In this document: positions 6,737 through 36,000 of the stretch, piece by piece
Layout of the letters: every line of letters begins with the position of its first letter
How positions within the stretch are numbered: the stretch's first letter is position 1
Source of the DNA: a virus
Length of the DNA stretch: 64,000 nucleotides
Reading direction: 5' to 3' (one strand)
Virus record (IMG/VR): IMGVR_UViG_3300008110_000023
Location: 1 to 64,000 of that record
Position numbers and translations under genes: made by a program
The notes under the pieces: generated by a model
What the model was told of the DNA's origin: nothing
The model's input: the letters and a program-made list of their open reading frames with translations, nothing else
Database searches by the model: none

Positions 6737-6740
6737 ACAT

Positions 6741-7545: not shown

Positions 7546-7551
7546 AATAAT

Positions 7552-7851: not shown

Positions 7852-7859
7852 TAATTACA

Positions 7860-8567: not shown

Positions 8568-8570
8568 TAA

Positions 8571-9119: not shown

Positions 9120-9134
9120 TTAACCCCACATATA

Positions 9135-9944
9135 ATGCTTAATTCAAAATTAGTAAGTACTAAAGAACTTGTAGCAACTGTTTATAGAGACGGAGGATAT
9201 ACTACTGAAGTTAGTTATTCTGACTGTATAGAATGGACTGCAGAATGCTTAGATTTAATAGCAGCTCCACAAGGTTATGTAAGAAAAGTAACAGATGTAA
9301 ACAATCCTGTTATTATTGAAAATTATAGAGGTAAATTACCAGCTGATTTAGTACAAATAATACAAACAGCTAAGTTAGATAACTCTTATCCACAAACTAG
9401 TATGGTTGGTACTGTACTTGATTTTACACAAGGACATGTAATAAGTGCTCCTCAATATTCTATTGGTTGTAAAATTATACCAATGAGATATGCAACAGAT
9501 ACGTTTAATCTAGGATTACACTGCAATGACTGTATAGACACTCTTGTTGATTCTGATTATACCTATGAACTAAATAATGATTATATATTTGCCAACTTTA
9601 AAACAGGAAAAGTACTTTTTAGTTATTTGGGTTATCCAATAGACTGTGATGGTTTTCCTATGATACCTGATAATATTAAATTTAAACAAGCAGTAAAAGC
9701 TTATTTAATGGAAAGAATAGATTATAAACTATGGAGAAAAGGAGAAATCAATACCCAAGTATATAATAAATCAGAACAAGAAAGAATGTGGTATATTGGA
9801 GCAGCACAAACACAAGCACAAATACCAAGTATTGATCAAGCAGAAAGTTGGAAAAATAGAATGGTTAAATTGCTTCCTGAGTTTAATGCTCAAAGTAATT
9901 TCTTTAGAAGAGGTAGTAATCAAGAACAATTAAGAAATATATAA
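9135..9944 (+). CDS. crAss-like tail tubular/ring protein (P22 gp4-like)
   Basis: IEWTAECL, ENYRGKLPADL, SYLGYPIDCDGFPMIPD and WYIGAA; directly upstream of the muzzle gene. Confidence 0.7.
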   Translation: MLNSKLVSTKELVATVYRDGGYTTEVSYSDCIEWTAECLDLIAAPQGYVRKVTDVNNPVIIENYRGKLPADLVQIIQTAKLDNSYPQTSMVGTVLDFTQGHVISAPQYSIGCKIIPMRYATDTFNLGLHCNDCIDTLVDSDYTYELNNDYIFANFKTGKVLFSYLGYPIDCDGFPMIPDNIKFKQAVKAYLMERIDYKLWRKGEINTQVYNKSEQERMWYIGAAQTQAQIPSIDQAESWKNRMVKLLPEFNAQSNFFRRGSNQEQLRNI

Positions 9945-14002: not shown

Positions 14003-14005
14003 CTA

Positions 14006-14036
14006 TTGTTTTAGTACTCATAATTCATTATATTTG
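14006..14036 (+). promoter_or_regulatory. Bacteroidota sigma-A-type promoter (TTG-N20-TATATTTG) for the cargo/RNAP operon
   Basis: TTG at 14006-14008 and TATATTTG at 14029-14036; ATG at 14043; the CTATTGTTT context is shared with the 5745 promoter. Confidence 0.75.
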
Positions 14037-14042
14037 TAGATT

Positions 14043-16940: not shown

Positions 16941-16958
16941 TATATAGAATAAGAAGTT

Positions 16959-18785
16959 ATGGCAGTAGAAAGAGGTTTTCAAGGACCAAAGTTTGAATTT
17001 CAAAGTCAATTTGTACCCCTACCACTTGACTTTATGCAAAAGCAATTAGAAAGTGCACAGAAAAGACAAGATGAGGGAAGAGCTTTACAAATAGACCTAT
17101 TAGGCAAAAAGATACCAGTAAATGAATTAGATGTTCAGGGTATTGAGTATGCTAAACAATTAAAATCAGGAGTAGATAATACTTTAAATGAATTATCTAA
17201 TGTTGATTTTAATGTTCCAGGTAATGTACAAAAACTATTAAAAGCTAGGCAAGATGTTGCTGCTATACATGGACAATTTGGACCTGCAGAACATTTAGCA
17301 CAAAGAGATGCTACAATAAACGCAGGTTTAAAATCATTAGAAGATAAAGATTTAGCATTACCTTCTTATGTTAAAGAACGTAAAAGAAATTTAATTAAAG
17401 AAGCAGCTGGTACTACTCCAGTAGGACAAAATATAGGAACTCCTGGAGTTACTAGACATTTAGATGCTAATAAAACAGTAGATGATTATGTTAAAGCAAC
17501 TGCTGCAGAAATGTATAATTCTCAAACTGGTTTAAAAGTAGATCCTAATGATCCAGAACTTTGGCAAACAGTTACTACTAAAACAAAAGGAATTACTGCA
17601 GATAAAATACTAAAAGCAGCTTGGAATAAATTACAAGCAGATCATGAATTTCAAGCTTCTATATTACAAGAGTCTGATGCTTTATCAAGAGGAGATAAAG
17701 AATCTTTTGATAAATATGCTGGTAATCCTTTAATATTTGATGATGCAGGTAATATAAAAGGAGTAACTAGTTCTATATTAGGAAATGCATTTTCAGGTGT
17801 ACTTAATAGAGCTTATAAAGATATAGATATTTCTAAAGATTGGAAAGTTAGTGATGCTACAAGAAGAGCTGCTAAAAGAGATGAAGAAGATAGAAATGCT
17901 GGTTTAATTCCATTAGAGGCTACTCCAACAGAAATACTTAGACAAAAAAATGCTTCTTTGGCAAAGAAAATGGAAAAACAAACTATTACTACTGGTACTA
18001 CTGCTTTTGCAAGTCCAACTGGATTAACTAGTAGAGTAGGTGAAACTAAATATGATTACCCTGAATTAACTCCTGAAGAACAAATAACTTATAATTCTAT
18101 TGCTAAGAATTTTCCAGGAATAACTAATAAAGATGAGCTAAACAAAAAAGTTAAAACAGTTATTGAAGGAATTTCAAATGTACCTGTAAGTTCTTATACA
18201 ACTGGTTATAATGAAAAACAAAAAGATGCTGCTACTAATTATTTATTTGGAGGCAATACAGTAGGAGCAGATGGTACTGGACTTACTGGTAATTATCTTA
18301 ATAGATATATTTATGATCCAGAAACAGGAAAACCTATACAAGGTAAAGATTTCCAAGCAATATTAGCAGAACAGCCTAAAGGAACTAAAGTACAAGTTGT
18401 GGGTAACTTTAATAGTAAAAATCCGTATACATTATTAGCTGACAATGATGCTTTTGCAACAGGGGAACAAGTAACTGTAGGAAATAAAATTTATGTTATT
18501 TCTGGACCAGCTCAAATGATAGACCCAAAAACAGGATTTGATGTAAGTATTACAAATAAAAGTGTTAATAAAATAAATAAAAGTTATTATGGTCCAAATG
18601 TAACACATCAAATAACTTTACCTGGAATGCAATCTGGAGACTATGCTGATATTACTTATAGTAATGGTGCCTATAGTTTAAAAGTTCCTGAATATGGAAT
18701 TACAGAAATAAAAGAATCTACTCCAGAAAAAGTTTATGACAGTTATATTACTGCAATAAAAAAATTAAATCAGACTAAACCTTAA
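16959..18785 (+). CDS. Ejection cargo protein 2
   Basis: 608 aa with N-terminal SQFVPLPLDFMQ motif and helical composition; lies between cargo 1 and the RNAP. Confidence 0.6.
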   Translation: MAVERGFQGPKFEFQSQFVPLPLDFMQKQLESAQKRQDEGRALQIDLLGKKIPVNELDVQGIEYAKQLKSGVDNTLNELSNVDFNVPGNVQKLLKARQDVAAIHGQFGPAEHLAQRDATINAGLKSLEDKDLALPSYVKERKRNLIKEAAGTTPVGQNIGTPGVTRHLDANKTVDDYVKATAAEMYNSQTGLKVDPNDPELWQTVTTKTKGITADKILKAAWNKLQADHEFQASILQESDALSRGDKESFDKYAGNPLIFDDAGNIKGVTSSILGNAFSGVLNRAYKDIDISKDWKVSDATRRAAKRDEEDRNAGLIPLEATPTEILRQKNASLAKKMEKQTITTGTTAFASPTGLTSRVGETKYDYPELTPEEQITYNSIAKNFPGITNKDELNKKVKTVIEGISNVPVSSYTTGYNEKQKDAATNYLFGGNTVGADGTGLTGNYLNRYIYDPETGKPIQGKDFQAILAEQPKGTKVQVVGNFNSKNPYTLLADNDAFATGEQVTVGNKIYVISGPAQMIDPKTGFDVSITNKSVNKINKSYYGPNVTHQITLPGMQSGDYADITYSNGAYSLKVPEYGITEIKESTPEKVYDSYITAIKKLNQTKP

Positions 18786-18791
18786 AATATT

Positions 18792-21700
18792 ATGCCAGAA
18801 AAAAAGTTTAATTTAGAAGATAGTTCTTTACAATCTGCTTTTGCTATTCAACAAACTCAAGGTACTCCAATAGAGGCAGAACAAACACAAATATTACCTG
18901 GAGAAGGAGTTGATTTAGAACAAGGTTATTTACCAATACAAACAGATTTTTTAGGAGAACAATATAGAAATATTAATATCTATAAAGGAAAACAACAATC
19001 TTGGGCATCACAAGCAGCTAATGCAGTAGGAAGAGTGGCATTAAATACTATTCCTACTGTAATAGGAAATACTGCTAGTATTTTAGATTTTGAAGATTAT
19101 TTAAATCAAGATAAAGAAGTTGGTAACTCTATTACCAATGCAATGGAAGAATTAAAAGCTTCTGTTAATAAAACATTGCCTATATATAGAACTTCTGATG
19201 AACATTTAGATTTAGGAGACAGTGGTTGGTGGTTTGAAAATGGATCTAGTTTAGCAGAATCTATAGGAGCTTTTGCAATAACAGGTGCAGGTTTAGGAAG
19301 TACTATGTCTTGGTTAACTAGTCTTGCTAAAGTAGGTAAAGCTGGACAAGCCGCTGCAACTGGTTTAACTGCTTTAGGATTAAACCAAGCAGAAGCTATT
19401 ACTACTGCAGGTCAAGTATACAAAGATACTTATGATTTTCATTTAGCTAAAGGATTAAATGAGGATGAAGCACAACAAAAAGCTGCAGATGCTGCTTCTT
19501 ATTCTATTAACTTAAATAGAGCAAATATAGCACTTAACTTAACTAGTGCTAATATGTTTGTAAGAGCTCCTAAATTAACTAGACAAATAATTAAAAATAC
19601 TTCTAAAGCTAATACTTTAAGACAAGGTGGTTTAGAAGCATTACAAGAAATTGGTGAAGAAGAAATAAACTTAGTTGCTGAGAAAGCAGGTAAAGCAAAA
19701 GGTGAAGGAAGAGACTATAGTATATCTCAAGCAATTGATAATGTATTAAGTGCAGAAGGTGTAGAAACTGGTTTACTTGGAGCACTTGGTGGTTTTGGAC
19801 AAACAGTTGGTACTGCTGCTATTAATCAATTAACTGGCAAAACAAAAGAACAACAAGAAAGATTTAAAACACAACAAGATGCTATTAAAGAAATAGAAAC
19901 TATTAGCAAAGCTAATAAAGTAAATGATGCTGCTAGTACCTTTAAAACAGCAAATGAATTAGGAAAATTATACAAACAAATACAAATAATAGATAATATT
20001 GAAAATCCTTCTAAAGAACTATTAGCAGAAAGAAAAAAACTAACAGATTCTATATTAGAAGTACAATCTTATAATGCTTTTAACAATGGTGTTACTGATA
20101 ATTTAGTAGATGAATATACTAAAATAAAAAGTATGCCAAAAGAAGAAGCTATTAAAAAAGGATTATATGATGGTAAAATGGATTTAAGTAATCCAGACCA
20201 TTATATTAATAAAGCTAATAAAGCTATTGAAAAAATAAATGAATTAGAAAATATTTATATAAAATCACAAAAGTATATAAATTCACAACAAGTTTATTTT
20301 AACAGAGCTGATGATATTGCTTTAAAAGAAAATAGAACCCAAAGACTTGCTATTTTAAATAATAATAAATTAAAAGCAGAGGCTGATATTTTAGGTAAAA
20401 TACAATCAGGACAAATAAGTCTTAGTAAAGGAGACAACACTGTATTTTATAATTTAGATAATTTAGATGAAAATCCTTTTACTACTCCAGCAGAAAAACA
20501 ATTGTATGAAGAAGTAAAAGAAAAAATAAGACAAATACCTTCTGTACAAGAATTTGAAGAAAGTAAAAAAGACTATGATTTTATAGAAGCAGAAATTAAC
20601 AAGAATGATAATGCCTATACAAAAGCAACTTCTGAAGAAACACAAAAGAAAGCAAAACAAGCATCAGAAGAGACTTTAAATGCTGTTAAAAAAGCACAAG
20701 AAGAAGCTGTTAAAAAAGAAGCAAAAGCAAAAGCTGATGCAGAAAGAGCAACAGAACAAGAAAGAATTAAACAAGAACAACTTAAAAAACAACAAACTGC
20801 TGCAGATGCCAAAGTAGCTGCAGAAGAAAAAGCAAAACAAGAAGCAGAAGCCAAGAAAAATGCAGAAGAAACTACTAAGGTAGAAACTCCTCCTACTTCT
20901 GTACAAAAACCTGTTGTAACTCCAACAACTACAGAACCTACATTAAGTGCAACACATCCTTTTGTTGTAGAAGGTTATTTAGATGCTATTATAGAAGACA
21001 GTAAAGGAAAAGATAAAAAATACTTTATTCAATCATTATCAGCGCTTAATTCAGCAGCTGAAGAAAACTTAGAAGGAGATGAGTTAATTGAATGGAATAA
21101 CTATTATAATAGTATTACATCAGGAACTACTACTGAAGAAACAACTACTCCAAGTTCAGAAGATACTGCAACAAAAACTTTAAAAGATAACTTTAAAGCT
21201 GCTTTTGAAGAGTTTGATATTAATGTACAACAACAAACTCCTAAAGTTGAAAGAACTGATGATGAAAAATTAAGTGATAGAATACAAGCAGTTCTTGATT
21301 TACTTAAAGCTACTAAATTAAATACAGCTACAGTTACTTTAGGACAAATAGTAGAAGAAGTAAACAAATTATTTGATAATGATATTGAGTATACTAAAAA
21401 GATATTCAATGACTTAAAGGATATTGTAACTTTACTACAAAAAATGAGAAATAATCCTGAGTATACTTTAACTCCTAATTATACTTTATCTGATGCTGGT
21501 ATTGTTGAAACAGGTATTACAATAGAACCTACTATACTCTCTGAAAAAACAAGTAGAGAAGCTAACGTAGAATTAATGTCTAGAGTAAGAGAAAATGATC
21601 CTACTCTTAACTTTATTATAGACGGTAAAAAAATTGAAAGTATAGCATCTGTAGCCTCTAAAGCAATATCAGATGAAGGTACTGAAGTAGATGAAACCTT

Positions 21701-24700
21701 AGGAGTTTTTAGAACTATTTATAATGAAGCTGGTGAATTAATATTTAATCCAAACCAGGACGCTATAGTAGATTCTAATTTTATTACTGAAGGAACTGTT
21801 ATTACTATTAAAGTAGAAAAAGCTACAGGTAATATAGAAGAAGATGTTGATACTGCTGAAATAGCAATGTATGTTACTACTCCAGAAGGAGAAAGAAAAA
21901 TAGGATATATACATTTACCTAGTTATGCAGGTGTACAAACATTAGCACAAGGAGAGTTATTACCATCTATACAAGAACAACTTACACTTATACAACAACT
22001 TAGAAGACAAGTATTAGAAAACCAAGATTCTATTCTTACAACTACTGTAACTAAAAGAGGTTTTGGTAATGTAAATAAAAAAGGAAAAGATGCTAATGGT
22101 AATATACCAACATCTATCTTAAGTAATGCTTTTGCTGGTGACACAAGAGTACATTTAGGTGTAGTAGGGCTTGTTGGTGAAAACAAGAAGATAAATAGAA
22201 ATGATGAAAGTATTCCTTTATATCAAGCAACTGATTTAAAAGCAGGGGCATTAGTTATACTTTTACCACATCCAAGTGGAACTGTAGTACCTTACTATGC
22301 AATAAGCAATCCAATAGGAGCAGATACTGGAGTTACTACTAAAGTAGTAAATACTTTAAAAGACTTCTTAGCACGTAAAATAGATAGAAAACAAACTACT
22401 ATGGCTATTGAAAGATATGTCTATACAGTTCCTGAAGGTAACATAGGCCGTAAAGGTATTGTTATAAAAGAACAAGATGGACAAAGATCTATTATAGTAG
22501 ATGGTAAAGAAGTTAAAAATGATAAGAACTTTGCAGAGGTTATAGGTAGTGTATACTTTAACATGAATAAAAGTATCTTAAACTCTAAAGATGGACCTGC
22601 TTATGAGAAAGAGATAATGAATTCTAACTTAGTGCGTACAGATGTACAAGCTAATCCTGTAACTTATACTAATGAAAGTGGTGAACAAGTAACTGAGAAC
22701 TCTTATTTCCATCAAGTAACTACAGAGTTTAGTACTAACTTAAATAAAAGTGCTAAACCAAAAGTACAAACAGAAAGTACTGTATCTGATATAGAAAGAA
22801 GAAGACAAGGATTAAAAACTATAAACGGCACTTTAAGAGTTGATTTAGGTGGATTTAGTATAGATAATGTATCTAAAGAATTTTATGACAATATACTTCA
22901 TGCCACAGCAGATCCTTTTTATATAAATTTAAAAAAATGGATTAATGAATTTAGAAAAACACAAAAACCATTTGCTGTTATAGATAGTTCTGAAATTATT
23001 AATAAATATAATGCAGAATTAGTTGCATTAGAAGGTAAACCAGAAGAAACTGGTACTACTACTAAAGAAGAAGCAGAAAGACTTAAAGCTATAGAAGATG
23101 CTAAAGCATTTGGTTTTGAAGTAGATGATGAATTAGAAGCAGATATTCCTACTATATTTGATACTCAGAATGATTTATCTGCAGAGCAAATAAGTATGAT
23201 GAAGAATAATCCTACTACTCTATTAGTACATCCTGAGTTAAATGCAAGTACACAAAATGAAGCTGTATTAAGTATAGCTTATAAAGCATTAACTATAGAA
23301 CCAGAGACTGAAGAAGTAGAAGGAAAAGAAGTATTAAAATCTACTAATAAAGAACTAGTTAAAGCTAACTTTATAGAAGGAGCAAGAGTACTTAACAACC
23401 TAGCAAAAACTAATCCTACTAATGCTACTTATGCTAAAGCAGCTAAGACTATGTCTATAGTAGCAGGAGATGAAGTATTTGAAAAACTCTATGCAAAAGC
23501 AACTGAATTTATTAAAGAGATAGGATTCTCTACTGAAGAAAGTGGTTTCTATAACCAAATGGAAGCTTTAGATGAAGTAGATGGAGAAGAAGAAAAGATA
23601 AATCAATTTATAGATGAAGCAGCTTCCTATGAAGATAGAAAGACTGGTGCATCTAAAAGATTTAAAAAATTCTTAGCTTTTATTCCAGCAATGGAACTAA
23701 TAAAAGGAAAAGCAAAGGTATCTAGAAACTCTTTATTAATGCCTACTTTTAATAACTATGATAGTACTTTTACTATGATAGCTAATATACTTAGTGAGTA
23801 TAACTACCCTAGTACTGCAGATGGTTTACAAATGATGATAAACAGACTGACTGCTACAGATATAAAGAATCCAGTTATAAAAGAAGTTGCTGCTAAGTTA
23901 GAAAAAGCCCCTCAAAAGATTAAAGTAGAGTTCTTTAACATCTTTAATCAACAACATGCTAAGTTTAAAACATTAAGACTATACTGGCAAAAAGCTAGAA
24001 CTTTTAAATATTTCCACCAAGGAATAGGAGGAGAAGTAAAAACTAAATACGCTGAAAGATTAAAACCTACTTTAATTAACTCTGATAGAAATAAAGCACA
24101 AGAATTAGTAAGAGAAGAAATGCTTACTAATTTTAAACAAAAAGGAGTTATTTTAAAAGCTGTTACTAATAAACTAGATAGAAAAACTAATAATACTACT
24201 TTAGAAGTTAACACTGAACACAATAAAGCTATTTATGATGCATTTGTTACTGCACTAAAAGATGATAGTAACTACCAAGTAGATAGTAGAGGTAAAGTAA
24301 ATACATTATTTTTTACTGAGACTGGTTTTAAAACTATGTATGACTTACTTAGTAATACAGGTATTAGTATTTCAGAAAATGCATTTGAAGACTTTTTAAA
24401 TAATCATATAACACAAGATGGTACAAGAGGTCATAAAGCTATTGCAGGTGAAGTTTTAGGAGTTATCCTAAAAAGTCTTGCTGGAGAAGGTACAGTTATT
24501 GATAGTGAAACTGTAGAAAATCCTTTTGAACTTAATAATCCTTTTTATACAGAAGGAAGTAGTATTAATATCTTAGCTAAGTATGAATACAATACAAGAA
24601 CAGATGTATTTAGTTCTTCATTTAGACATGCTGGTAAAAGTTTCTATACTTTTGTAAGACATACTCCTTTATCTGAATTAGTACTAAAGCTTAAAAATCC

Positions 24701-27700
24701 TTGGAGAGCTAATAAAAAAGAAAACAGTTTTATTAGAGGACTTATAACTAGAGATCCATTGTCTAAACATAGTCTGTGGTTAAACAAAATGGTTAATCCT
24801 ACTAAAAAAGGAGATTCTGTTTTTGCAGATACATTTAATTTGTTCTATGAAAAAGGATATAGAGATAGTTCTGAAAAAGGATCTACTCCAAAAGACCTTA
24901 AGGATTCTATTGAAAAAGAACATGAATTAAACAAAATAATTTCTTTCCAAGCACAAGGAAAAGACACTGTTGTATTCCATGCAGATACCCACTCAGATAA
25001 AACTACTAAAGCTTTTATACAAGCTATTAAACAATCTGTTGATGGTTATACAGGAAATATAGAAGAAGGTATTCAATTATCTGATGATAGTTTAACTGAT
25101 TTATATAGTTATTTCTTAGCAGAATATGATAGGATATTACAAGTAAATGAACAAAATGAAGATCCTAATTTTCCTGCACATAAGAAATTAAAAGGATATC
25201 ACGGTACTAAAGCAAAACCAGGTTTAGGAAGTGTATTTAATATGTACCATTTCTTAAACTATGCTGTATTAAAAGACACTAATGCAGATTTAGCAACAAT
25301 GTTATTTGACTCTGAAGGTAATTTAAGAAATATACCTAAAGAAGATATGGCAGTAGTCTCTGGAATGGTTAAAGAAGAAATTAACAATAACTTTAATAGA
25401 CTATTTAAAAAAGTAAAAGAAGACTGGAGTACTTTAGGTATATTCTTTACAGAAACTAACAAATTAGGGTATACTAGATTGAATATTAACTCCTACATGG
25501 ATGCTAAATATTATGATAAAGTAGTAAACACACTTGGTATAGAAAATAAAGCTGTTAAGAAAGTAACAGAGAATTTTAATCAACCAGCAATAGATGCAGA
25601 AGTAGCAAAAATACTTGACTATGCTATAGTTGATTATGTAGTTAACTACGCTATAGCTACTAATGAAATGCTTATTATAACAGGAGACCCTGCATTACAT
25701 GGTAAACCTTCTAAAGATAAAGGTAGTATTAGTAGTAAAAATTGGGTATTAAAGTCTATTGCAGATACATTTATTAACGTAGGTAAACGTAATGCAAGAT
25801 TACTGGCTTCTGGTAACAAAGGTATGTTTAGTAAACAAAAGTATAATGTTGCTTTTGTAAATGACATTGAAGAAGTTTCTGAACATGTAAGTGATTATGT
25901 ATCATGGTTAAAAGAATTTGAACCTGATTATATTAAAAAGAAATTTACTTCTAATATGACAGATGCCCAAGAGTTAACTACTGTTGAAGAGCATTTAGAA
26001 GTTATGCGTGCTTTTGGTAAAATAACTGATAATCAATTTAAAACATTACTAGGTTTATATGATCCAGCTGCTTACAGAGATTTATACAAAGAAGAAGCTC
26101 CTGCATATACACAAAAGGAAGTATTAGAGAATTTAAAAACTGTAATGCAACCTATGAAACCTGTACAAGTACAAAGTGTATTGGACACTGATATTAAAGC
26201 TAATGTACAGTATTATATTAAAACATCTTCATTCCCTATTATTCCTGCTTTAGTAAAAGGAAAACCTATGGAGTCTGTATTAAAACAAATGAAAGAAGCT
26301 AAAGTAGATAGACTTTCATTTGTATCTGCAGTTAAATTAGGAGAACATGGAGCTAAAAACTTATTTATAGAAGATAAACTTAATACAGAGTTATTTAAAG
26401 ACAATGTAATTGAATTAGATAGAGATGGTTTTAGTATACAGTTAGAAGTACCTTACAAAGAAAACAAAAAAGAAGTAAGAGAAGGTACCCAAAATATGAA
26501 ACTATTGTTTATGGATTTACCTGATTCTTTAGAATTAGAATTATCTGAAGGAAACAAAACAGTAGAAGAAGCTAAAAGAGAATATAATAGAATTCATAAA
26601 GAAATCATAGATAGCGCTTTAACTAAGTTATTAGGAGACATAGGAGCAACTGTTACTGAAGATGAAGCAGGATTTAAATCTTATAAAATAAATGATTTTA
26701 CTAATTTAAGTAAGATACTTAAAGAAGAAGGAGAATCTAGAGGATATTCAATTAACTCATTACTTGGTCTTGATTTAAATAAAGATGGTCAGTTTAAAAT
26801 ACCATTGACTTTTAACCCAAACTCTGCACAAATAGAACCTGTTATTACTGCATTATTAAGTAATAGATTAGTTAAACTTAAAATGCCAGGTAAATCCTAT
26901 GTATTAGGATCTGAAGTTTTAACCTTAGAACCTTCAATAAATAAAGAAGGAAAACAGACTCAAGCAGATATTAATGTTATTAAAGATATTATATGGGTAT
27001 CTGATAAATATAAAACACAAGGTAAACTTAAATACTACAGAGAAGAAAACGGTAAACCAGCAATGGCACAAATTATCATGCCTGCTTATTTCTTAGATAA
27101 AGAAGGAAAGCAAATAGACATGACTAAGTTTGTAAAAAATGGTTTTTTAGATACTAGTAAAATAGATAAAGAACTATTACAAATAATGGGCTTTAGGATT
27201 CCTACACAAGGACATAACTCCATGATGATGTTTGAAGTAGTAGGATTCTTACCTAAAACTAGTGGTGATTTAGTTATAGTTCCTGCAGAAATTGCTGCTC
27301 AAATGGGATCTGACTATGACGTAGATAAATTATATACTTATCATTATAACTATTATGTAGGTTCAAAATCTGGTAAACTAAAAAAATACAGTAAACCAGG
27401 AAATATTAAAACAAAACAAAATAGATTGCTTGAAATTCAATCAGCTATTATAATGAATAAAGAAGTAGCGCCTTATATTATGAATCCATTATCTATGGAT
27501 GATTTAGCAGACGCTATTGTAGAATTAAATAAAGATAAAAAAGAAGAATGGATAGGTAACTATTCTACTTTATACCAAAGAAATACTTACTTTGATAATG
27601 CTGCTGGTAAAATTGGTGTAGGTATATCTGCAAATGCTAATACTAATCACGCTGCTTTTCAACAGGCAGGTGTTTATGTTAAAGGAGGAGGCGTTGTATT

Positions 27701-30700
27701 CTTAAAACCTGACGGTACTCCATATAGTGATATTGAAAATAATGCTTATGAAAGTAATAGTGTTAGTAAATATAAAGAAGATAAATATACTTATCCTGAT
27801 CCTTTTAGTGATGATATAATAGACAATAAAAAAGATAACAATACTGCTTGGAGATTAGATAAAATATTTACTTTTGATGGTAAACGTATTTCTGATATTA
27901 TATCTCAATGGCTAGGAGCTTCTGTGGATAATGCCAAAGAAAAACTACTAGGAGAAGGAGGTATTAATAAGTATAACTTTAATGTGTCTTTGTTAATAGC
28001 TAGAACTGGATTTGGTAATAATTGGATTATACCTTTTATCAACCAACCTATCTTAAAAGAATATTATGCTATACTACAAAAACTAGAGGATAGTACTGAA
28101 AAGTCTTTTGAGGCAGGTAAAAAAGAAAAAGCAATAGAACAATTATTTAAAAAGTATACAGATTTATATAAAGTTGCAAATCCTAATGAAACTCCTGGAA
28201 TACAAGGAGTAACATTACTTGAATTAAAAAGTTCTCTGAATAAGGAAATAAATGCAGATAATGCAGCAGCACAGTTAAATATATTAAAAGCTTTCTTACA
28301 TTATGAAACTATTAGCTTAGAAGTAGGTACTGTACAAAAAGCATTAAATACTGATGTTAAGGGATTACCTAAAAATATAGCAGAAACTGCAGAAAAAAGA
28401 GATTTTATTAGTGAGCATGGGTATAACTCTTCTGTATTAGGAAATGTAGGTAAAATAAGAGAAAAAGTAATATCAGGTGCTTTTATGGAAATACCTAGAA
28501 TTGCTAGTCAATTATTTAATAGAAAAACAGACGGTTCTTATGTATATGCTTATGATAGTTCTGCCTACAAATGGGTTAAAACAGGATTAGCACAAATAGC
28601 TAATAAAGAATTTAATACTGAACAAATTAATTTAATACATAATAGTTTACAACAGTTTATTTATACTCACCCAGAATTAGGTTTATATGGGGATAATTAT
28701 GAGGCAGAAAAACAAAGGTTATTATACAATGAAAACCTAGCTGATAGATTATTGCAATTACAAGAGAAATACCCAAAAAACTATTTCTTAAGTAAAATAA
28801 GTGCTGTAATTGATACTAATGTTAATAATCCTAAAAAGATTAAGATAATAAATACTACTGCAGAACAAAAGATCTTTATAGAGAGAATGCAACAAGAATG
28901 GGAATCTGCTTTTTATGCAGAACCAGAACTTGCCAGATTTGCAGAAGATATGGCTAAGTACACAATGATGTTTAATGCTAATCAATTTGGAGCTTCTAAC
29001 TTAATAAAATACTTACCTTTTAACTATCTTAACATTATAGGTGCAGGTAAAGTATTAAATGGTTTAGAATTAGAAGATTCTTTAAGTCTTATAAACTTTA
29101 TACCACAATTCTTACAGCACAATCCAGAGTTTGCTCCTTTTGCTAAAGAAAGTAATTTCCTTGAAAATAGCGCAGTTTATAAAAAAGATGCTGATGGTAA
29201 AGATACTGATATTATAGAAGGATTTAAATTACCTAGTTTAGCTTTAGAATTTGATAAAAATGATGCACGTAATTTAATACAAATTATTAAAGTAGAAGGA
29301 GAAGAAATACCTGTATATCCAAGTTTCTTATCTGTATATGGAGGAGCTGAATTAGGAAGATTACTTTTTATAAAAGTAAATGAAGATTTTTATAGAAGAG
29401 TAGACACATTAGGAAATACTGATTTTACTGAATATAACTTTAGTAAAAATGGTTTAGCTTCTACAATACTAGAAGAGCAAAAAGGTGTTGTAGATATTAA
29501 CAAAAAAACAAATACTATAGAATCTACTACAACTGATTTAGATCAACTTTATTTTACAACTTCAAGTGTTCATTCTTTACTAGAAAATATTGTTATTAGA
29601 AATACTTTTGCTACAGATCCTTTAGCAGAAGCTTATGGTGCCTTAGCAGAAAAACTACTAGAACAACCAGAAAATGGATATAGAGTAGTAGTTGATAATA
29701 GTATACCAGCAGTAGGAGCTCATAATAGAGTAGAAAAATTAATTAAACTAAATAAAGAAGCTTTATTAAAAAATAATGAATTAGAAATACAACGTGTTAT
29801 ATTACATGAACTTATACACAAAGAAACTGTAGCTAAATTAGTAGATAATAAATTCTTAGAAACAAAAGAAGGTCAAGCTATTACTAAAGTATTTAATAGT
29901 TTTAAAGAACAACTACAAAATAAAGCATTATCTGATACTGAAAAAACTAGGGGTATTCCAAATGAATTCCTAGAAGCAGAAGTATTTAAGTTATTAACTG
30001 AGGCTAGTTTTGGAGAAAATAAAAAAGATTTAAATATACTATCTTTAAATAGAATTACTAATAGTGATATAAATAGTCCTGCTTTTAAAGAACTTATGAA
30101 GTCTTTATCTACTAATCTTGCTAAAGTAGATAAATTTAAAGCTAGTAGTAAATTAGAACCAGGTACTGAAAGATATGAAGCAGTTGCTAATTATATTAAA
30201 GATACTTTTACAGCAAATAATATTAAGGAATTAAAACCTAAATATTACATGTACACTAGTATTTTAGAGTTTGCTACTGAAGCTTTAACTAATACAAAGA
30301 CTCAAGAGTATTTAAAAACATTTACTACTATTAATCAAAAAGGAGAAAAAGTAAGTTTATGGAAACAGTTTATAGATGCTTTAACTACTTTACTTAAGTT
30401 TAATAATGTAAATAGAACATTAGCAGAAGATGCTATTGAAAGTATTATAGATGTAATTGATTATGGTAAACCAGCTGAGATAATTACTCCACCATCTATT
30501 AGTGTTAAAACTTTTGATAAAAAAAATCTATTTAAAGTAACACCTATACAAACTGCTGACAAAAAAGCAACTATCAAAGCCAGTATAGCTACTCAATATA
30601 TTGGTTTTGGTGAAGGCATTGCAGGAAGTTCTACAGAACTATATAGACAACAAGCTGGAGCTTTAGCTAATACAGGTAACTATTCTGTTAATGATGTAAT

Positions 30701-33089
30701 ATTTGTATCTGTTCCTGGTAGAAGAGGTACTGAAATACAACAAAAAACACAACAAGATAAAACTATTAAAGAAGCTATTAAAGCTGTAGAAGCTGGAGCT
30801 ACAATCCTTACAGATAATAAAGCTTATATTGATTCTAATTCTTATAACACAGGAGAAAAAAGACTTTATAATGCTATGAAAGAACAAGGTTATGACTATT
30901 CTGAAATTATAATTGACGGTCAACTTATTGGTACTTGGAGTAAACCTACTCAACCAGTTACTGAAGTAGTAGAAACTAAAGAAGTTATAAATAAAATATC
31001 AACTCCTATATTAAGTAAAAAATTAGTATATACTGTATATAATCCTATTAGTGGAAAAAATCAAACTAAAAATGGTTATAAATTAACTATTCCTGAATTT
31101 CCAAATTTTGAAGGTTATATTACACAAGAAGAAATAACACAAGAAAGTAAAGAAGGAAAACCAGAACTTAATAAAAAAACAAAAGAATGGACTATAGAAA
31201 TAGTACATCCAACTAAAGGAGTACTGAATTTTCCTGTAGGCTGGGCAAAAACTAAAAAAGAAGTTATAGATACTTTTGTTAATGATATTAATGAAAAACA
31301 TTCTAAATCAGAAGAAGGTAAAAAAATATTGCAAGAAATTGGTATTGATTTTATTGGCATACAACCACAAGTTGAAGTAAAAACAACAGAAGTTATATTA
31401 AAATACTATGGTGCTTATTACAAATACAATATTGATAAAGATGGTAACCAAGTAGGAGCTTCTTTATATTCTCAAAATGGAGTAGATTATATAAGTACTT
31501 CTAGAGATTATGCTTCTATAATAGCAAGTAATAACTACACTAATGCAACTACTGGTGAAGTATTTGGTAAACCAAAAGAACCTGTAATAATACCTGAAGA
31601 AGAAGGAGATAATGCTAAATATGAATTGTTTCCTGGAGTATTTGCCAATGAAGGACAGAAAGAAGCTTTAGATAAACTAGATTCTTTTATGGCATCTACA
31701 GGTAAAGATAATGAAGCCTTTGTATTAGTTGGAAGAGGAGGTACTGGTAAGACTACTATTATTAAAAAGATGATAGGTAAATTTCCAAATTTAAGAATAG
31801 GAGGAGCAACTGTATCACATGCAGCTAAAGATATCTTAGGAAATTCTATTGGAAAAGGAAATGCATTTACTTTAGCTAGTTTATTAGGAATAAAATTAGA
31901 TGAAACTACAGGTAAATTTGAAATTGATGGTTTTAGTAGAAGAACAAAAGGAATTCCTATTGAAAAATTAGACATTATTATAATTGATGAATGTTCTATG
32001 GTTTCTGATTTATTGTTTGAAGAATTATTTAAATATAAAAAACCTAGTGCTAAAATTATCTTTATGGGAGATAATGTCCAATTAGCTCCTGTAGAACAAG
32101 AAACAGATTCTATTACTTTTAAAGCTAATAAAAACCCAAATAATTTTGCTAAGTTAACAGAACCTATGAGATTTAGTGCTGAAAATCCTATTTTTGCATT
32201 GTCTTATATAGTAGCAGATAACGTAGAAGCTCCTGAAAGTAAAGTATATACTATCCCACAATCAAGTAGAGTAACTACTTTAAAAGAAGATACTGGTATT
32301 ATATTTACTAATAGTGAAGAAACTGCTTTATCTATGTTGGTAGAAGACATTAAACAAGAACTTGAAAAAGAAGTTCCTAATACAAAAGCAGTAAAAGCAG
32401 TTACTTTTAATAATGAATTAAATAATGCTACACAATCTGTTAAAAATCTTAATCTTAAAATAAGACAAAAATTATGGGGAGAAGAAGCTAAAAATCAATT
32501 TAATATAAATGAACTTTTAACTGCTTATTCTACTTTTGGAGGAGAAAATCCTGCCTTTTATAACTCAGAAAACCTTATAGTAAAAGAAGTGTCTGAAGTA
32601 AAAGATGTTGAATACAACATAGGTGTGTTTGATTTTAAATTTAAAACTGTTTATTTAACTTTACAAAAAAGTGATGGTACAATAGTAAGTAATATACCAA
32701 CAGTTGCCAAAGAAGATTTAGAAAGATACAATAAAGAAGTAAAGGCTTTAAAATCAAATCCTGATGGAAGAATAAAATCAATAGGTTTTAAATTATCTGA
32801 AGAATTAGCTAATTTACAATATGGCTATGCTGTTACTTCTCATAAAGCACAAGGTAGTACTTATACTAATGTATATGTTTTTGAAGACAATATCTTAGGC
32901 AATAGTAATTTAAGTGCCCCAAAAGATAAAAACAGAGCTTTATATACAGCTATTACTAGAGCTAGTAAAAAACTAGTATTAATGGGTAAGTTTAATATAA
33001 ACAATGAGATGAATAATCTTAATGATATTGATATTTTCAGTACCTTTGATGATGAAACACTTGATAAACAAATAAAAGCTTGTGAATAA
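18792..33089 (+). CDS. Giant virion-packaged two-barrel RNA polymerase fused to zincin peptidase and C-terminal SF1 (Dda/RecD-like) helicase
   Basis: GFRIPTQ (RIPTQ at 27195) and catalytic GSDYDVDKL (DYDVD at 27312-27326); also TDAQ and SVDNAKE. HELIH at 29805 with downstream EFATE. Helicase motifs GRGGTGKT (31731), IIIDECSM, GDNVQL, YAVTSHKAQGSTY and LYTAITRASK. Confidence 0.9.
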   Translation: MPEKKFNLEDSSLQSAFAIQQTQGTPIEAEQTQILPGEGVDLEQGYLPIQTDFLGEQYRNINIYKGKQQSWASQAANAVGRVALNTIPTVIGNTASILDFEDYLNQDKEVGNSITNAMEELKASVNKTLPIYRTSDEHLDLGDSGWWFENGSSLAESIGAFAITGAGLGSTMSWLTSLAKVGKAGQAAATGLTALGLNQAEAITTAGQVYKDTYDFHLAKGLNEDEAQQKAADAASYSINLNRANIALNLTSANMFVRAPKLTRQIIKNTSKANTLRQGGLEALQEIGEEEINLVAEKAGKAKGEGRDYSISQAIDNVLSAEGVETGLLGALGGFGQTVGTAAINQLTGKTKEQQERFKTQQDAIKEIETISKANKVNDAASTFKTANELGKLYKQIQIIDNIENPSKELLAERKKLTDSILEVQSYNAFNNGVTDNLVDEYTKIKSMPKEEAIKKGLYDGKMDLSNPDHYINKANKAIEKINELENIYIKSQKYINSQQVYFNRADDIALKENRTQRLAILNNNKLKAEADILGKIQSGQISLSKGDNTVFYNLDNLDENPFTTPAEKQLYEEVKEKIRQIPSVQEFEESKKDYDFIEAEINKNDNAYTKATSEETQKKAKQASEETLNAVKKAQEEAVKKEAKAKADAERATEQERIKQEQLKKQQTAADAKVAAEEKAKQEAEAKKNAEETTKVETPPTSVQKPVVTPTTTEPTLSATHPFVVEGYLDAIIEDSKGKDKKYFIQSLSALNSAAEENLEGDELIEWNNYYNSITSGTTTEETTTPSSEDTATKTLKDNFKAAFEEFDINVQQQTPKVERTDDEKLSDRIQAVLDLLKATKLNTATVTLGQIVEEVNKLFDNDIEYTKKIFNDLKDIVTLLQKMRNNPEYTLTPNYTLSDAGIVETGITIEPTILSEKTSREANVELMSRVRENDPTLNFIIDGKKIESIASVASKAISDEGTEVDETLGVFRTIYNEAGELIFNPNQDAIVDSNFITEGTVITIKVEKATGNIEEDVDTAEIAMYVTTPEGERKIGYIHLPSYAGVQTLAQGELLPSIQEQLTLIQQLRRQVLENQDSILTTTVTKRGFGNVNKKGKDANGNIPTSILSNAFAGDTRVHLGVVGLVGENKKINRNDESIPLYQATDLKAGALVILLPHPSGTVVPYYAISNPIGADTGVTTKVVNTLKDFLARKIDRKQTTMAIERYVYTVPEGNIGRKGIVIKEQDGQRSIIVDGKEVKNDKNFAEVIGSVYFNMNKSILNSKDGPAYEKEIMNSNLVRTDVQANPVTYTNESGEQVTENSYFHQVTTEFSTNLNKSAKPKVQTESTVSDIERRRQGLKTINGTLRVDLGGFSIDNVSKEFYDNILHATADPFYINLKKWINEFRKTQKPFAVIDSSEIINKYNAELVALEGKPEETGTTTKEEAERLKAIEDAKAFGFEVDDELEADIPTIFDTQNDLSAEQISMMKNNPTTLLVHPELNASTQNEAVLSIAYKALTIEPETEEVEGKEVLKSTNKELVKANFIEGARVLNNLAKTNPTNATYAKAAKTMSIVAGDEVFEKLYAKATEFIKEIGFSTEESGFYNQMEALDEVDGEEEKINQFIDEAASYEDRKTGASKRFKKFLAFIPAMELIKGKAKVSRNSLLMPTFNNYDSTFTMIANILSEYNYPSTADGLQMMINRLTATDIKNPVIKEVAAKLEKAPQKIKVEFFNIFNQQHAKFKTLRLYWQKARTFKYFHQGIGGEVKTKYAERLKPTLINSDRNKAQELVREEMLTNFKQKGVILKAVTNKLDRKTNNTTLEVNTEHNKAIYDAFVTALKDDSNYQVDSRGKVNTLFFTETGFKTMYDLLSNTGISISENAFEDFLNNHITQDGTRGHKAIAGEVLGVILKSLAGEGTVIDSETVENPFELNNPFYTEGSSINILAKYEYNTRTDVFSSSFRHAGKSFYTFVRHTPLSELVLKLKNPWRANKKENSFIRGLITRDPLSKHSLWLNKMVNPTKKGDSVFADTFNLFYEKGYRDSSEKGSTPKDLKDSIEKEHELNKIISFQAQGKDTVVFHADTHSDKTTKAFIQAIKQSVDGYTGNIEEGIQLSDDSLTDLYSYFLAEYDRILQVNEQNEDPNFPAHKKLKGYHGTKAKPGLGSVFNMYHFLNYAVLKDTNADLATMLFDSEGNLRNIPKEDMAVVSGMVKEEINNNFNRLFKKVKEDWSTLGIFFTETNKLGYTRLNINSYMDAKYYDKVVNTLGIENKAVKKVTENFNQPAIDAEVAKILDYAIVDYVVNYAIATNEMLIITGDPALHGKPSKDKGSISSKNWVLKSIADTFINVGKRNARLLASGNKGMFSKQKYNVAFVNDIEEVSEHVSDYVSWLKEFEPDYIKKKFTSNMTDAQELTTVEEHLEVMRAFGKITDNQFKTLLGLYDPAAYRDLYKEEAPAYTQKEVLENLKTVMQPMKPVQVQSVLDTDIKANVQYYIKTSSFPIIPALVKGKPMESVLKQMKEAKVDRLSFVSAVKLGEHGAKNLFIEDKLNTELFKDNVIELDRDGFSIQLEVPYKENKKEVREGTQNMKLLFMDLPDSLELELSEGNKTVEEAKREYNRIHKEIIDSALTKLLGDIGATVTEDEAGFKSYKINDFTNLSKILKEEGESRGYSINSLLGLDLNKDGQFKIPLTFNPNSAQIEPVITALLSNRLVKLKMPGKSYVLGSEVLTLEPSINKEGKQTQADINVIKDIIWVSDKYKTQGKLKYYREENGKPAMAQIIMPAYFLDKEGKQIDMTKFVKNGFLDTSKIDKELLQIMGFRIPTQGHNSMMMFEVVGFLPKTSGDLVIVPAEIAAQMGSDYDVDKLYTYHYNYYVGSKSGKLKKYSKPGNIKTKQNRLLEIQSAIIMNKEVAPYIMNPLSMDDLADAIVELNKDKKEEWIGNYSTLYQRNTYFDNAAGKIGVGISANANTNHAAFQQAGVYVKGGGVVFLKPDGTPYSDIENNAYESNSVSKYKEDKYTYPDPFSDDIIDNKKDNNTAWRLDKIFTFDGKRISDIISQWLGASVDNAKEKLLGEGGINKYNFNVSLLIARTGFGNNWIIPFINQPILKEYYAILQKLEDSTEKSFEAGKKEKAIEQLFKKYTDLYKVANPNETPGIQGVTLLELKSSLNKEINADNAAAQLNILKAFLHYETISLEVGTVQKALNTDVKGLPKNIAETAEKRDFISEHGYNSSVLGNVGKIREKVISGAFMEIPRIASQLFNRKTDGSYVYAYDSSAYKWVKTGLAQIANKEFNTEQINLIHNSLQQFIYTHPELGLYGDNYEAEKQRLLYNENLADRLLQLQEKYPKNYFLSKISAVIDTNVNNPKKIKIINTTAEQKIFIERMQQEWESAFYAEPELARFAEDMAKYTMMFNANQFGASNLIKYLPFNYLNIIGAGKVLNGLELEDSLSLINFIPQFLQHNPEFAPFAKESNFLENSAVYKKDADGKDTDIIEGFKLPSLALEFDKNDARNLIQIIKVEGEEIPVYPSFLSVYGGAELGRLLFIKVNEDFYRRVDTLGNTDFTEYNFSKNGLASTILEEQKGVVDINKKTNTIESTTTDLDQLYFTTSSVHSLLENIVIRNTFATDPLAEAYGALAEKLLEQPENGYRVVVDNSIPAVGAHNRVEKLIKLNKEALLKNNELEIQRVILHELIHKETVAKLVDNKFLETKEGQAITKVFNSFKEQLQNKALSDTEKTRGIPNEFLEAEVFKLLTEASFGENKKDLNILSLNRITNSDINSPAFKELMKSLSTNLAKVDKFKASSKLEPGTERYEAVANYIKDTFTANNIKELKPKYYMYTSILEFATEALTNTKTQEYLKTFTTINQKGEKVSLWKQFIDALTTLLKFNNVNRTLAEDAIESIIDVIDYGKPAEIITPPSISVKTFDKKNLFKVTPIQTADKKATIKASIATQYIGFGEGIAGSSTELYRQQAGALANTGNYSVNDVIFVSVPGRRGTEIQQKTQQDKTIKEAIKAVEAGATILTDNKAYIDSNSYNTGEKRLYNAMKEQGYDYSEIIIDGQLIGTWSKPTQPVTEVVETKEVINKISTPILSKKLVYTVYNPISGKNQTKNGYKLTIPEFPNFEGYITQEEITQESKEGKPELNKKTKEWTIEIVHPTKGVLNFPVGWAKTKKEVIDTFVNDINEKHSKSEEGKKILQEIGIDFIGIQPQVEVKTTEVILKYYGAYYKYNIDKDGNQVGASLYSQNGVDYISTSRDYASIIASNNYTNATTGEVFGKPKEPVIIPEEEGDNAKYELFPGVFANEGQKEALDKLDSFMASTGKDNEAFVLVGRGGTGKTTIIKKMIGKFPNLRIGGATVSHAAKDILGNSIGKGNAFTLASLLGIKLDETTGKFEIDGFSRRTKGIPIEKLDIIIIDECSMVSDLLFEELFKYKKPSAKIIFMGDNVQLAPVEQETDSITFKANKNPNNFAKLTEPMRFSAENPIFALSYIVADNVEAPESKVYTIPQSSRVTTLKEDTGIIFTNSEETALSMLVEDIKQELEKEVPNTKAVKAVTFNNELNNATQSVKNLNLKIRQKLWGEEAKNQFNINELLTAYSTFGGENPAFYNSENLIVKEVSEVKDVEYNIGVFDFKFKTVYLTLQKSDGTIVSNIPTVAKEDLERYNKEVKALKSNPDGRIKSIGFKLSEELANLQYGYAVTSHKAQGSTYTNVYVFEDNILGNSNLSAPKDKNRALYTAITRASKKLVLMGKFNINNEMNNLNDIDIFSTFDDETLDKQIKACE

Positions 33090-33090: not shown

Positions 33091-36000
33091 ATGGATTGTC
33101 CCAATTTAAATTTAAAATTCTATAAGAAGTTAACTTCTCAGTTTGGTAAGAAAACTGCCTATCAATGGCATAATATTATAAAAACTGAGAGGTTTATAAC
33201 CTGGTTTGGTTTTGGCAAAGTAGATAGTGAAGGTATGCCTAATATTGACAGGTTTGGTAACATTACTAATGGTAAAAGCCAAACTTATAGGGTATTAGGT
33301 AAAAGTAACTTTAACAGTGTTAAGGACTTAACTAACTTCTTATCTAGTAATTATACTGAAGGTATTAGATTATATAAAGGTAGTTACTACTTAGCTAAAA
33401 CTATGGATAGTAGAGAGTATGGTAGAGCTACTTTAGAAAGTCTAAATAAGCATTATCCAGGACTAATAACTCAATTACCAGTAAGTGATAATGTTTTAAA
33501 AGCAGATTATACACACAGACTAGAGATCAATAAAAACTATTTTAATAAGCCTAACTTAGAAGAACAATTTGATATAGATGTAGATGCATTACCAGACATG
33601 CCAATGCAACTTACTAATATACCTAGATTAGAATCTGGAGAAAAAACTATAAGTATAAGACCTACTAATTATAGAACAGGTATATATAAGTATGGAGATA
33701 AAGCTTATAAAATAAGTAATAAAGATACATGGAACGTTGATGAATACCTTGATTTTCATAATATTACTTTAGAAGAACTTATAGAAAGATTTTCAGGAGA
33801 TGATCAAATTAAATATGAACATATACAAGATTGGTTACAAGGTAAAGGACCTAAAATGTATGTATATGAAATTAATAGGAATATTGATGAAAATGATGTT
33901 AATACATTTACTGATGATCCAAGATACACATCTGAGATTAAAAGATTAGAATTATTAGTAATTAAATTAGAAAGAAGAAAAAAACTATCTACTTTATCAG
34001 CTAATGAAAAAGAGTCTTTAAGACTACAAATTAAAGATTTAAAAGACACAATTAAAGAACTTAAAGATGATGCTAGTAGGAGTTTATCTTTAATAATAAG
34101 TAATGCAGAAACACATATAGCACAAGTAAGAAATATATTAGCTAAAGAAGTTAACTATCATAATGTAACAAGTTCTTTAGAGTTAGTAATGCCCTATATA
34201 CAACTATTTAATGAATTTACTGAATTAACAGCAGTAGAACAAAAAAAGGTAGATGCTCTTATTGCTGCTATTAGTAAATTAGAAGCAGAAGCTAAGAAAG
34301 CAATGGCTATAAAAGCTAATAGTGTAGTAAGAAATGTAGTAGGAAAAGAAATTCTAATTAATGGAGTTGCTATTCCAGTTAAAGATGATAATACTATATC
34401 AGCATATTCTTTAGGATCTTCTAATTCTACTAATGCTATAGCTCAGACTATAACTAAAAAGATAAAAGATGTAGAAAATACAGTTGATTCTGAAAACAGA
34501 TTCTTTTTAGAAGAACATGAAAGACTTGTACAAGAATTAAAAGAATACCAAAAAGCAAAAGGTATTAAAGAAGAAGACATGTATAGATATATGATACAAG
34601 AAGATCATGAAGGAAATCCAAATGGTCTTTTTGTAGGAGCTTTAAACTCTGGATACTATGAAGCACAAAAAGAAGCTAAAAGTAAAAGTCTTGTTGATTT
34701 CTTAAAATTCTTAGGTAAAGAACACACTCTTTCTGTAAATGAAGAAAAGTTTGATGCTTATAAAGAAAGTATAAAAAAATGGGCAGATGATCAAACATGG
34801 ATAGCATCTCCTAAATCAGGAAAAACTAATGAAGAATATAAACAAAGTGTAATAACTAAGAAAATAAACCAAGCTAATCCTCAGACTTTAATAAATATTG
34901 TTAACAAATTACAAGAGGGAAAAACTATTACTTATGGAGAAACAAAGTTTGTAGATCAGTTTTTGAAAAACAATAACATGCGTCTATTAAACAAACAAGC
35001 TCATAGTAAATGGAAAGATGGTAAGTATGATACTATTATGGAGTTAGATGAAGACAATCCTCTTAAAAAGTTTTATACGCATTTTACTACTAATATAAAC
35101 AAAGGTAGAAGAGAACTTGGTGAGTTCTTTGATGAAAGGTATTTACATTACAATTATATTCCAGAAGTAAGTAAAAATAGCAGTTTCTTTAGAGAGATTG
35201 GTAATAAACTTAAGAATTCATTCACAGAGTTTCCTAACCATAGTAGTGTTACTGATACTGATATTATAACAGGAAGAGCAATGCATCAAATACCTGTATG
35301 GTCTTTATCTGGTAAAATGGATGCCTCTCAAAAATCATATGATTTAGGTAATGTACTAAAAGTATTTACAGCTCAGAAGTTTAATAAGATATACAAAGAA
35401 CAAATACAAGATGATGTTAATTTACTACTTACAGTATTAAATGAACAAGAAATGTATGAAACTGATAGTAAAGGTAATATTATTGAACAAATAGTTGGAG
35501 GTAAAAAAGTACCTGTAATTAAAAAGAATCCTAATAGTAATACTTATAAAGCTGCTCAATATTTAGTAGATTCTAATATCTATGAACAAAGACAGAATAA
35601 AGATGGTGTATTAATGACTATCTATGATAAGGATACTAAAGAAAGATTAGCAGAGTATGTTAAAATACAAAAAGAAAGAGGTTATTCAGATGCTGATATA
35701 AATAAAAACAAATATGTTGGTTTAAAAGAAACTGAAATTAATGAGTATCAAATAATAGAAAAACAATATAAAGAAGTTACTGGTAAAAAGATAGCTAATA
35801 ACCTTATATATTTAACTACTTTAAAAGGATTAGCTTTAAATCCATTCTCAGGTATATCAGAGTTTATTCAAGGGTTAACATCTGTATTTACTGAAGCAGC
35901 TGGTAATGAATTTTATAGTGATGCTAATGCTAAAAGAGCTTTAGGTTTAATACTTCATTCTACTAATCCTAAAATCAATAGAAAGAAAATACAACAACTA

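Follow-up and report, generated by a model that had tools for sequence, protein, structure and literature searches.

The window analysed here comprises positions 1 to 64,000, the first 64 kb, of the 85,026 bp IMG/VR virus record IMGVR_UViG_3300008110_000023, which stems from an uncultured freshwater crAss-like phage, and our subject is one giant gene on its plus strand. Judged by sequence comparison, the gene encodes a single-chain crAss-type virion RNA polymerase of the family of phage phi14:2 gp66, and its C-terminal domain is predicted, from motifs and from a structural model, to be a motif-complete superfamily 1B (SF1B) helicase of the Dda/RecD-like type, with predicted enzymatic activity. 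The join between polymerase and helicase is real and no artefact, and alignments with related phages indicate that the helicase is an optional, exchangeable module. According to our best reading, to which we give a probability of about 0.5, the gene product would be packaged and ejected as a multi-enzyme protein, in which the helicase would open the entering DNA and so supply the polymerase with its preferred template, single-stranded DNA (ssDNA). The modules of the gene are listed below with nucleotide (nt) positions in the window and amino acid (aa) positions in the protein.

18792..33089, plus strand: giant open reading frame (ORF; P0001), virion RNA polymerase polyprotein with C-terminal helicase, 4,765 aa, ATG start, TAA at 33087-33089
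18792..23063, plus strand: N-terminal region, aa 1-1424, with a gp67-like start, Gly/Ala-rich and Lys/Glu/Ala-rich parts and a Thr/Pro-rich linker
23064..28691, plus strand: RNA polymerase module, aa 1425-3300, homologous to phi14:2 gp66 (PHROG 16227)
27195..27326, plus strand: catalytic double-psi beta-barrel signature FRIPTQGHNS ... GSDYDVDKLY, aligned to gp66
28692..30470, plus strand: zincin-like region, aa 3301-3893, with HELIH at aa 3672-3676 (nt 29805-29819) and the invariant E3826
30486..31079, plus strand: alpha/beta cassette, aa 3899-4096, mobile, with no function assigned by fold or family
31080..31625, plus strand: linker with small units, aa 4097-4278, no family match
31626..33086, plus strand: Dda/RecD2-like SF1B helicase, aa 4279-4765, Walker A GTGKT at nt 31740-31754

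The single frame described in the initial annotation is open throughout all of its 4,765 codons. At 29% G+C, about 8% of random codons (roughly 1 in 12) are stops, and a chance frame of this length is therefore excluded. With a polymerase, a zincin-like motif and a helicase, the chain appears to unite several unrelated enzymatic domains in one ORF, as polyvalent proteins do. It may be cleaved after synthesis, in analogy to what Drobysheva et al. proposed for such polyproteins.

Against phi14:2 gp66 (PDB 6VR4), phmmer aligns aa 1425-3197 of the giant protein to residues 48-1788, and a profile of alignment A1, which consists of the proteins of 12 giant relatives, matches g066 over residues 112-2116 (E 6.6e-80). 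RIPTQ and DYDVD had been named initially as signs of an RNA polymerase core. Both hold up, since RIPTQ (aa 2802) and DYDVD (aa 2841-2845, nt 27312-27326) align to gp66 around its catalytic DFDID site, with GFRIPTQGHNS...GSDYDVDKLY pairing residue by residue with GYRIPNQGQSS...GSDFDIDKMY. The three aspartates D2841, D2843 and D2845 represent the metal-binding triad and are invariant in the A1 proteins (12 of 12). In gp66 the bridge helix comprises residues 1529-1559 and the trigger loop residues 1598-1636 (Drobysheva et al.); the aligned gp66 segments 1489-1572 and 1605-1770 appear to take in the bridge helix and the trigger-loop region.

In eight related phages (L044, L064, L065, L069, L072, L079, L082 and L091) the polymerase core is found in two frames. 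All eight are interrupted at one common site immediately ahead of the catalytic barrel, where about 470-500 nt separate the two frames; in L064 these are 2153-13090 and 13559-20671. It looks like an intron or another inserted element. Such interruptions of the polymerase gene have been reported for some crAss-like phages.

At the other end of the chain, matches to the Pfam families AAA_30, AAA_19, PIF1 and UvrD_C_2 and to PHROG 325 (Dda-like helicase, E 9e-66) span aa 4285-4736 (nt 31644-32999), in agreement with the earlier placement of intact SF1B motifs at about 31620-32990. Motifs I, Ia, II, III, V and VI are all intact (GRGGTGKT, SHAAK, DECSM, GDNVQLAPV, TSHKAQGS and YTAITRA), with GTGKT at aa 4317, DECSM at 4399, GDNVQL at 4426, HKAQGS at 4684 and TAITRA at 4719, and the motifs align to those of Dda, RecD2, RecD and DSH9. 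An AlphaFold2 (AF2) model of the domain, computed from 47 homologues, reaches a mean predicted local distance difference test (pLDDT) score of 92.7 and a predicted template modelling (pTM) score of 0.89. Its best Foldseek match is T4 Dda (3UPU; E 1.6e-27, template modelling (TM) score 0.77 by target, 484 columns), followed by DSH9 and RecD2, and the modelled fold would consist of two RecA-like domains with the accessory domains 1B and 2B, as in the SF1B group. Dda itself moves with 5'-3' polarity and displaces proteins.

The helicase opens with YELFPG.FANE.Q, the same sequence that opens its free-standing homologues, and no methionine precedes it. As there is no methionine ahead of the domain, it could be produced only as part of the giant chain. 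Since it begins like the free-standing homologues, without their methionine and with its own stop, it looks like a whole helicase gene that was joined in frame, whereby the start was lost and the stop was kept.

A fusion of this kind might be imitated by an assembly chimera or by a gene-calling artefact, or the helicase might be a decaying remnant. Read support at the junction is partial: Logan contigs from freshwater and lake metagenomes of two studies tile it without a difference, and one of them covers 31305-31712, from the linker into the first helicase residues; however, the contigs break at 31713, beside the Walker A codons, and none spans the whole 2-kb junction stretch. Against an artefact stand, first, two proteins from independent assemblies (P0002 and P0003) that are collinear with the giant protein and 79-84% identical to it and, second, the same architecture in dozens of IMG/VR, ENA, Logan and RefSeq records. 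One of these is gp14 (4,946 aa) of the RefSeq crAssphage cr118_1, which shows the same polymerase-helicase join. In addition, the G+C content is even along the giant gene, none of the catalytic motifs is damaged and the fold is modelled with confidence. The fusion claimed in the initial annotation thus recurs in many independent assemblies, and we consider artefact and remnant refuted for practical purposes, with a negligible residual likelihood.

Among the public sequencing runs that hold the stretch, no RNA run is listed. Another contig, present in two lake/freshwater runs, matches only 31736-31771 and 31884-31918, with 118 other letters in between, and probably represents a related helicase gene of another phage in the same waters.

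A survey of domain architectures among crAss-like RNA polymerases had been proposed along with the fusion; in our comparison, about one third of the related giant polymerase genes carry an SF1B helicase. A phmmer search with the helicase of the window found it in 75 of 163 fetched core-bearing proteins, in 74 of these 75 downstream of the core. By Pfam or the helicase-family profile, 40 of 120 relatives selected by the core alone possess the domain, and core and helicase share one frame at 24 of 80 IMG/VR loci chosen by polymerase motifs alone. At a 25th IMG/VR locus (L012) the helicase is present in the giant frame, while the core was not detected by the weaker single-sequence search.

The helicase slot is fixed: as judged from the aligned chains, it lies between the zincin region and a gp65-C-like module. 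This module, a separate gene in the window, is fused to the C-terminus of the giant chain in P0124, P0090, P0095, P0346 and P0350. In P0124 the zincin region leads straight into the gp65-C-like part, without a helicase, and in the four others the helicase is located inside the chain, between the polymerase and the gp65-C-like part. At least two helicase lineages occupy this same slot, which is consistent with a helicase having been selected for repeatedly at this site. Where the polymerase is most similar (41-49% identity), the helicase is only 25-29% identical or absent, and conversely helicases of 42-47% identity are borne by polymerases that are 24-30% identical. The helicase tree requires at least 25 changes of state between the giant and the free-standing form. 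Of the free-standing helicases, P0237 and others come closest, with 45-48% identity. A pattern scan with P0237 found nothing, and its nearest IMG/VR relatives by profile scan (L091 and L092) are themselves fused; some short helicases that seem to be free-standing may in truth be pieces of giant genes. Among cultured phages, Flavobacterium phage FpV4 is the closest relative; its gp32 (4,287 aa) possesses core and zincin region but no helicase.

Besides the helicase, other domains vary between the giant proteins as well. P0002 contains an AlkB-like 2-oxoglutarate (2OG)-Fe(II) oxygenase (PF13532), apparently where the window phage has the cassette. With the cassette replaced in P0002 and P0003 and the helicase lineages exchanged, domains appear to be shuffled between close relatives, a further trait of polyvalent proteins. 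As accessory domains of other giant proteins we observed NADAR (PF08719), ART-PolyVal (PF18760), PF08902 and PF25176, and in addition the intein or homing-endonuclease domains PF05203, PF05204 and PF14528.

One might conclude that the helicase is an interchangeable payload of a polyvalent virion protein. In that case it would not depend on the polymerase and would shield the entering DNA from host defences or process it to counter them; it might, for instance, dislodge nucleases or DNA-binding proteins or remodel the ends of the DNA. The patchy distribution, the exchanged lineages and the state changes in the tree fit this idea, as do the AlkB-like replacement of the cassette and the NADAR, ART-PolyVal and PF08902 domains elsewhere. 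Furthermore, Iyer et al. (2017) describe helicases, a UvrD-like SF1 enzyme among them, as components of polyvalent proteins. However, the helicase is by far the commonest add-on, as any other domain occurs in fewer than 10 of the 120 relatives, and it is placed almost invariably downstream of the core. Taken together, this frequency and this position suggest a link to the polymerase chain and not a random payload. Moreover, no known anti-defence activity is assigned to Dda-type helicases. A payload that acts without regard to the polymerase therefore seems to us possible, yet rather unlikely.

Alternatively, the fused domain could be the accessory helicase for replication or recombination of the phage, with a Dda-like role at forks or origins, that was relocated by gene fusion. 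It would then serve replication, whether it arrives preformed or is freed from freshly synthesized protein. It is indeed the sole SF1B helicase in the 85-kb genome, and a free-standing SF1 helicase is a listed gene of the crAss-like replication block (Yutin et al., 2021). p-crAssphage gp14 is an example. In 36 related records of at least 78 kb, the helicase is fused in eight and free-standing, on the replication arm, in seven; no record combines the two. However, this lack of overlap is not significant, as chance alone would give only about 1.6 such records. In related phages the free-standing helicases are also distant from the one in the window (E 1e-10 to 1e-24), and the other fused ones are much closer to it (E 1e-93 to 1e-116). 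As 21 of the 36 records show no SF1B helicase that passes the family cut-off, the gene is not one that replication requires. Finally, the fused domain has no start of its own and lies in a late structural operon. We regard a relocated replication helicase as distinctly improbable.

What remains to be considered is the packaged and ejected multi-enzyme protein itself. In vitro, gp66 is an efficient polymerase on single-stranded or denatured templates but makes hardly any RNA from double-stranded DNA (dsDNA; Drobysheva et al.). In phi14:2, gp65, gp66 and gp67 were detected in virions by mass spectrometry, and gp67-gp66-gp65 fusions in some phages were noted as likely polyproteins (Drobysheva et al.). 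In crAss001, polymerase-associated cargo is stored in the capsid for ejection. The polymerase gene of the window is likewise placed among cargo and ejection genes, with crAss_CARG1 upstream and gp67-like and gp65-like modules flanking it. By analogy, the homologues in phi14:2 and crAss001 virions point to a delivery into the host together with the DNA. We infer packaging, cleavage, enzymatic activity and the coupling of helicase and polymerase alike. The giant chain would be made late and packed into the capsid. Intact or already cleaved, it would be ejected before the DNA or together with it. Driven by ATP, the helicase would move 5'-3' along one of the strands of the entering DNA. If this were the non-template strand, it would travel in the same direction as a polymerase that reads the template 3'-5'. 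Thereby it would expose a single-stranded template and strip bound proteins for the polymerase. The helicase would hence be an optional enhancer of early transcription and not a required part of the polymerase family.

Several observations weigh against such a role. About two thirds of the related giant polymerase genes are without a helicase and the closest ones carry another lineage or none, so it is no built-in requirement of the polymerase family. In the same sense, the family works without an SF1B helicase in the 21 of 36 records mentioned above, four of which are rated 100% complete. The slot also takes unrelated domains in relatives, such as the AlkB-like oxygenase, which fits a payload logic unlinked to transcription. 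Cleavage of the chain, should it occur, could also part the helicase from the polymerase. Furthermore, a Dda-type helicase needs a single-stranded 5' tail, whereas the entering DNA is duplex.

One might even speculate that helicase and ejected polymerase act in cis and form a self-contained machine that opens the duplex on the non-template strand and allows early transcription of dsDNA without host factors; it may also help to draw the genome into the cell. We put this forward only tentatively and with some doubt. If it were true, the fact that different SF1B helicases were captured repeatedly at one slot would point to a general need for a single-stranded template, which crAss-like phages without the helicase would meet through host proteins.

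Towards the N-terminus, the chain resembles another cargo protein of phi14:2. Residues 62-337 (nt 18975-19802) match the N-terminus of g067 in an hhalign comparison of A1 (probability 96%, E 2e-9), and a region near the N-terminus (N1) is common to many giant proteins. Gly/Ala-rich segments at aa ~155-200 and 320-345 are followed by a Lys/Glu/Ala-rich stretch (aa 601-700) and then by the Thr/Pro-rich linker. The initial annotation had spoken of hydrophobic Gly/Ala helices. The segments exist and are gp67-homologous; however, in a Kyte-Doolittle scan none of their 19-residue windows reaches 1.1, and no segment of membrane-helix grade was found. From their composition we take them to be glycine-zipper-like and not classical membrane helices.

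In the zincin-like region, H3672, E3673, H3676 and E3826 are invariant in A1. The Pfam SprT-like family scores 14.6-18 bits there, below its cut-off of 25.6. The region aligns weakly with residues 287-357 of g065 (hhalign probability 82%, E 1e-5, 71 columns), just after the HEIMH that g065 itself has at residue 245. It thus seems to correspond to the N-terminal part of phi14:2 gp65, as a putative metallopeptidase. A plain hidden Markov model (HMM) profile of A1 matched only g066 among the phi14:2 proteins, and neither gp65 nor gp67; the links to these two proteins were obtained by profile-profile comparison and BLASTP.

The cassette that follows (aa 3899-4096) comprises about 200 residues, and its core reaches an AF2 pLDDT above 90. 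It is absent from the closest relatives P0002 and P0003, which hold other inserts, while copies of 49-64% identity occupy different positions in giant proteins whose remaining sequence is only ~25-30% identical. Consequently, it can be considered a mobile protein module. Searches for its identity gave no Pfam match above cut-off, no usable ESM Atlas match and no Foldseek match at E <= 0.001. The best VIA-align matches, to Rossmann-like methyltransferases, reach a Z of 5.6, which is inside the noise range. The last ~90 residues of the subsequent linker also occur in P0002 and P0003.

Outside the giant gene, the following features of the window are relevant.

14043..16940, plus strand: upstream cargo protein, 965 aa (PF25725 crAss_CARG1, 29.6 bits against a cut-off of 27)
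16959..18785, plus strand: upstream ORF, 608 aa, at the position of cargo protein 2, assigned by position only, no family match
33091..37035, plus strand: next gene, ~1,314 aa, gp65-C-like, ATG at 33091 (mechanical ORF call from GTG 33082)
51193-52269, minus-strand arm: DnaB-like helicase
53224-54474, minus-strand arm: SF2-type helicase

The 965-aa cargo protein contains a glycine-zipper segment at aa 85-120. Downstream, the TAA of the giant gene is separated by one base from the ATG of the gp65-C-like gene, which lies in the +1 frame. The latter gene matches g065 residues 1278-1406 (BLASTP E 9e-6) and a second collinear piece, while its comparison with FpV4 gp33 gave no clear match.

The record as a whole contains the large terminase, portal and major head protein of phage families. 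The strand switches at ~37 kb, with the giant gene near the end of the structural arm, and the minus-strand arm encodes PolA, primase, ligase and the two helicases listed above, which correspond to the separate DnaB and SF2 enzymes of the initial annotation. Also on the minus strand of the replication arm, at 45343-47694, a MoxR-type ATPase (phrog_1297) adjoins an HNH endonuclease family protein (phrog_1314). A 114-bp repeat is present at both ends of the record. CheckV rates its completeness at 47%. Nevertheless, given the terminal repeat and the full structural and replication arms, the 85-kb genome is probably complete, and the CheckV value is likely an underestimate for a divergent phage group. 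A megablast search of the giant gene against the INPHARED phages gave no match.

How the phi14:2 virion polymerase reaches its template in the cell has been an open question since its description, and the recurrent fusion to a Dda-type helicase provides a concrete, testable candidate for the missing DNA-opening activity. In addition, the fusion reveals a defined slot for swaps of enzymatic modules in the giant crAss cargo proteins and ties these to the theme of polyvalent proteins. There is a gain for annotation as well, since the labels 'exonuclease V' or 'DNA helicase' in reference genomes overlook the polymerase. Giant fused crAss polymerases and polyvalent proteins are already known, and the helicase-bearing form is already present in databases including RefSeq; in the literature searched we found no published description of a helicase-bearing crAss polymerase fusion. 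What our analysis adds is that the helicase is inserted at a fixed site within the equivalent of gp65 and that its lineages have been exchanged.

Among known systems, phi14:2 offers the closest parallel for the polymerase. The homology extends over nearly all of gp66, the DxDxD signature is alike, and the gp67-like N-terminus, the putatively gp65-like HExxH region and the gp65-like downstream gene occur in the same order, where the structural arm ends and the strand switch follows. However, phi14:2 has separate gp67, gp66 and gp65, whereas the window phage fuses the gp67-like part, gp66 and the first gp65-like part. Its gp65 equivalent is split by the inserted cassette and SF1B helicase, while gp66 of phi14:2 is without a helicase.

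For the fusion as such, the counterpart is cr118_1 (Besingivirus coli, Suoliviridae), whose giant gp14 combines the polymerase core with a C-terminal SF1B helicase and, in the gene order of the window, is followed by a ~1,670-aa gene and then by the strand switch. Both proteins differ in sequence (~26% identity in the core and 29% in the helicase) and in origin, with cr118_1 from the human gut and the window phage from fresh water. By its helicase part alone, gp14 is labelled 'exonuclease V', and we found no paper that discusses it. The helicase domain resembles T4 Dda (3UPU) and Deinococcus RecD2 (3GPL) in all helicase motifs and in overall fold, yet those are free-standing proteins or subunits of ~440-740 aa, in contrast to the C-terminal domain of a 4,765-aa chain.

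With polyvalent proteins (Iyer, Burroughs, Anand, de Souza and Aravind, 2017) the giant chain shares the many enzymatic domains per chain, the presumed carriage with invading DNA and the shuffling, as well as modules such as helicase, zincin, NADAR, ART and AlkB-like domains. The helicases described there are SF2 enzymes linked to methylases and UvrD-like SF1 enzymes, while a Dda-type SF1B helicase joined to a two-barrel RNA polymerase is not among them. A parallel for the proposed division of labour is QDE-1 of Neurospora. This single-chain polymerase has two barrels, belongs to the same structural family, prefers ssDNA and needs the helicase QDE-3 and replication protein A (RPA). In contrast to the window phage, QDE-3 is a separate RecQ-type (SF2) helicase without fusion, and the setting is eukaryotic RNA silencing.

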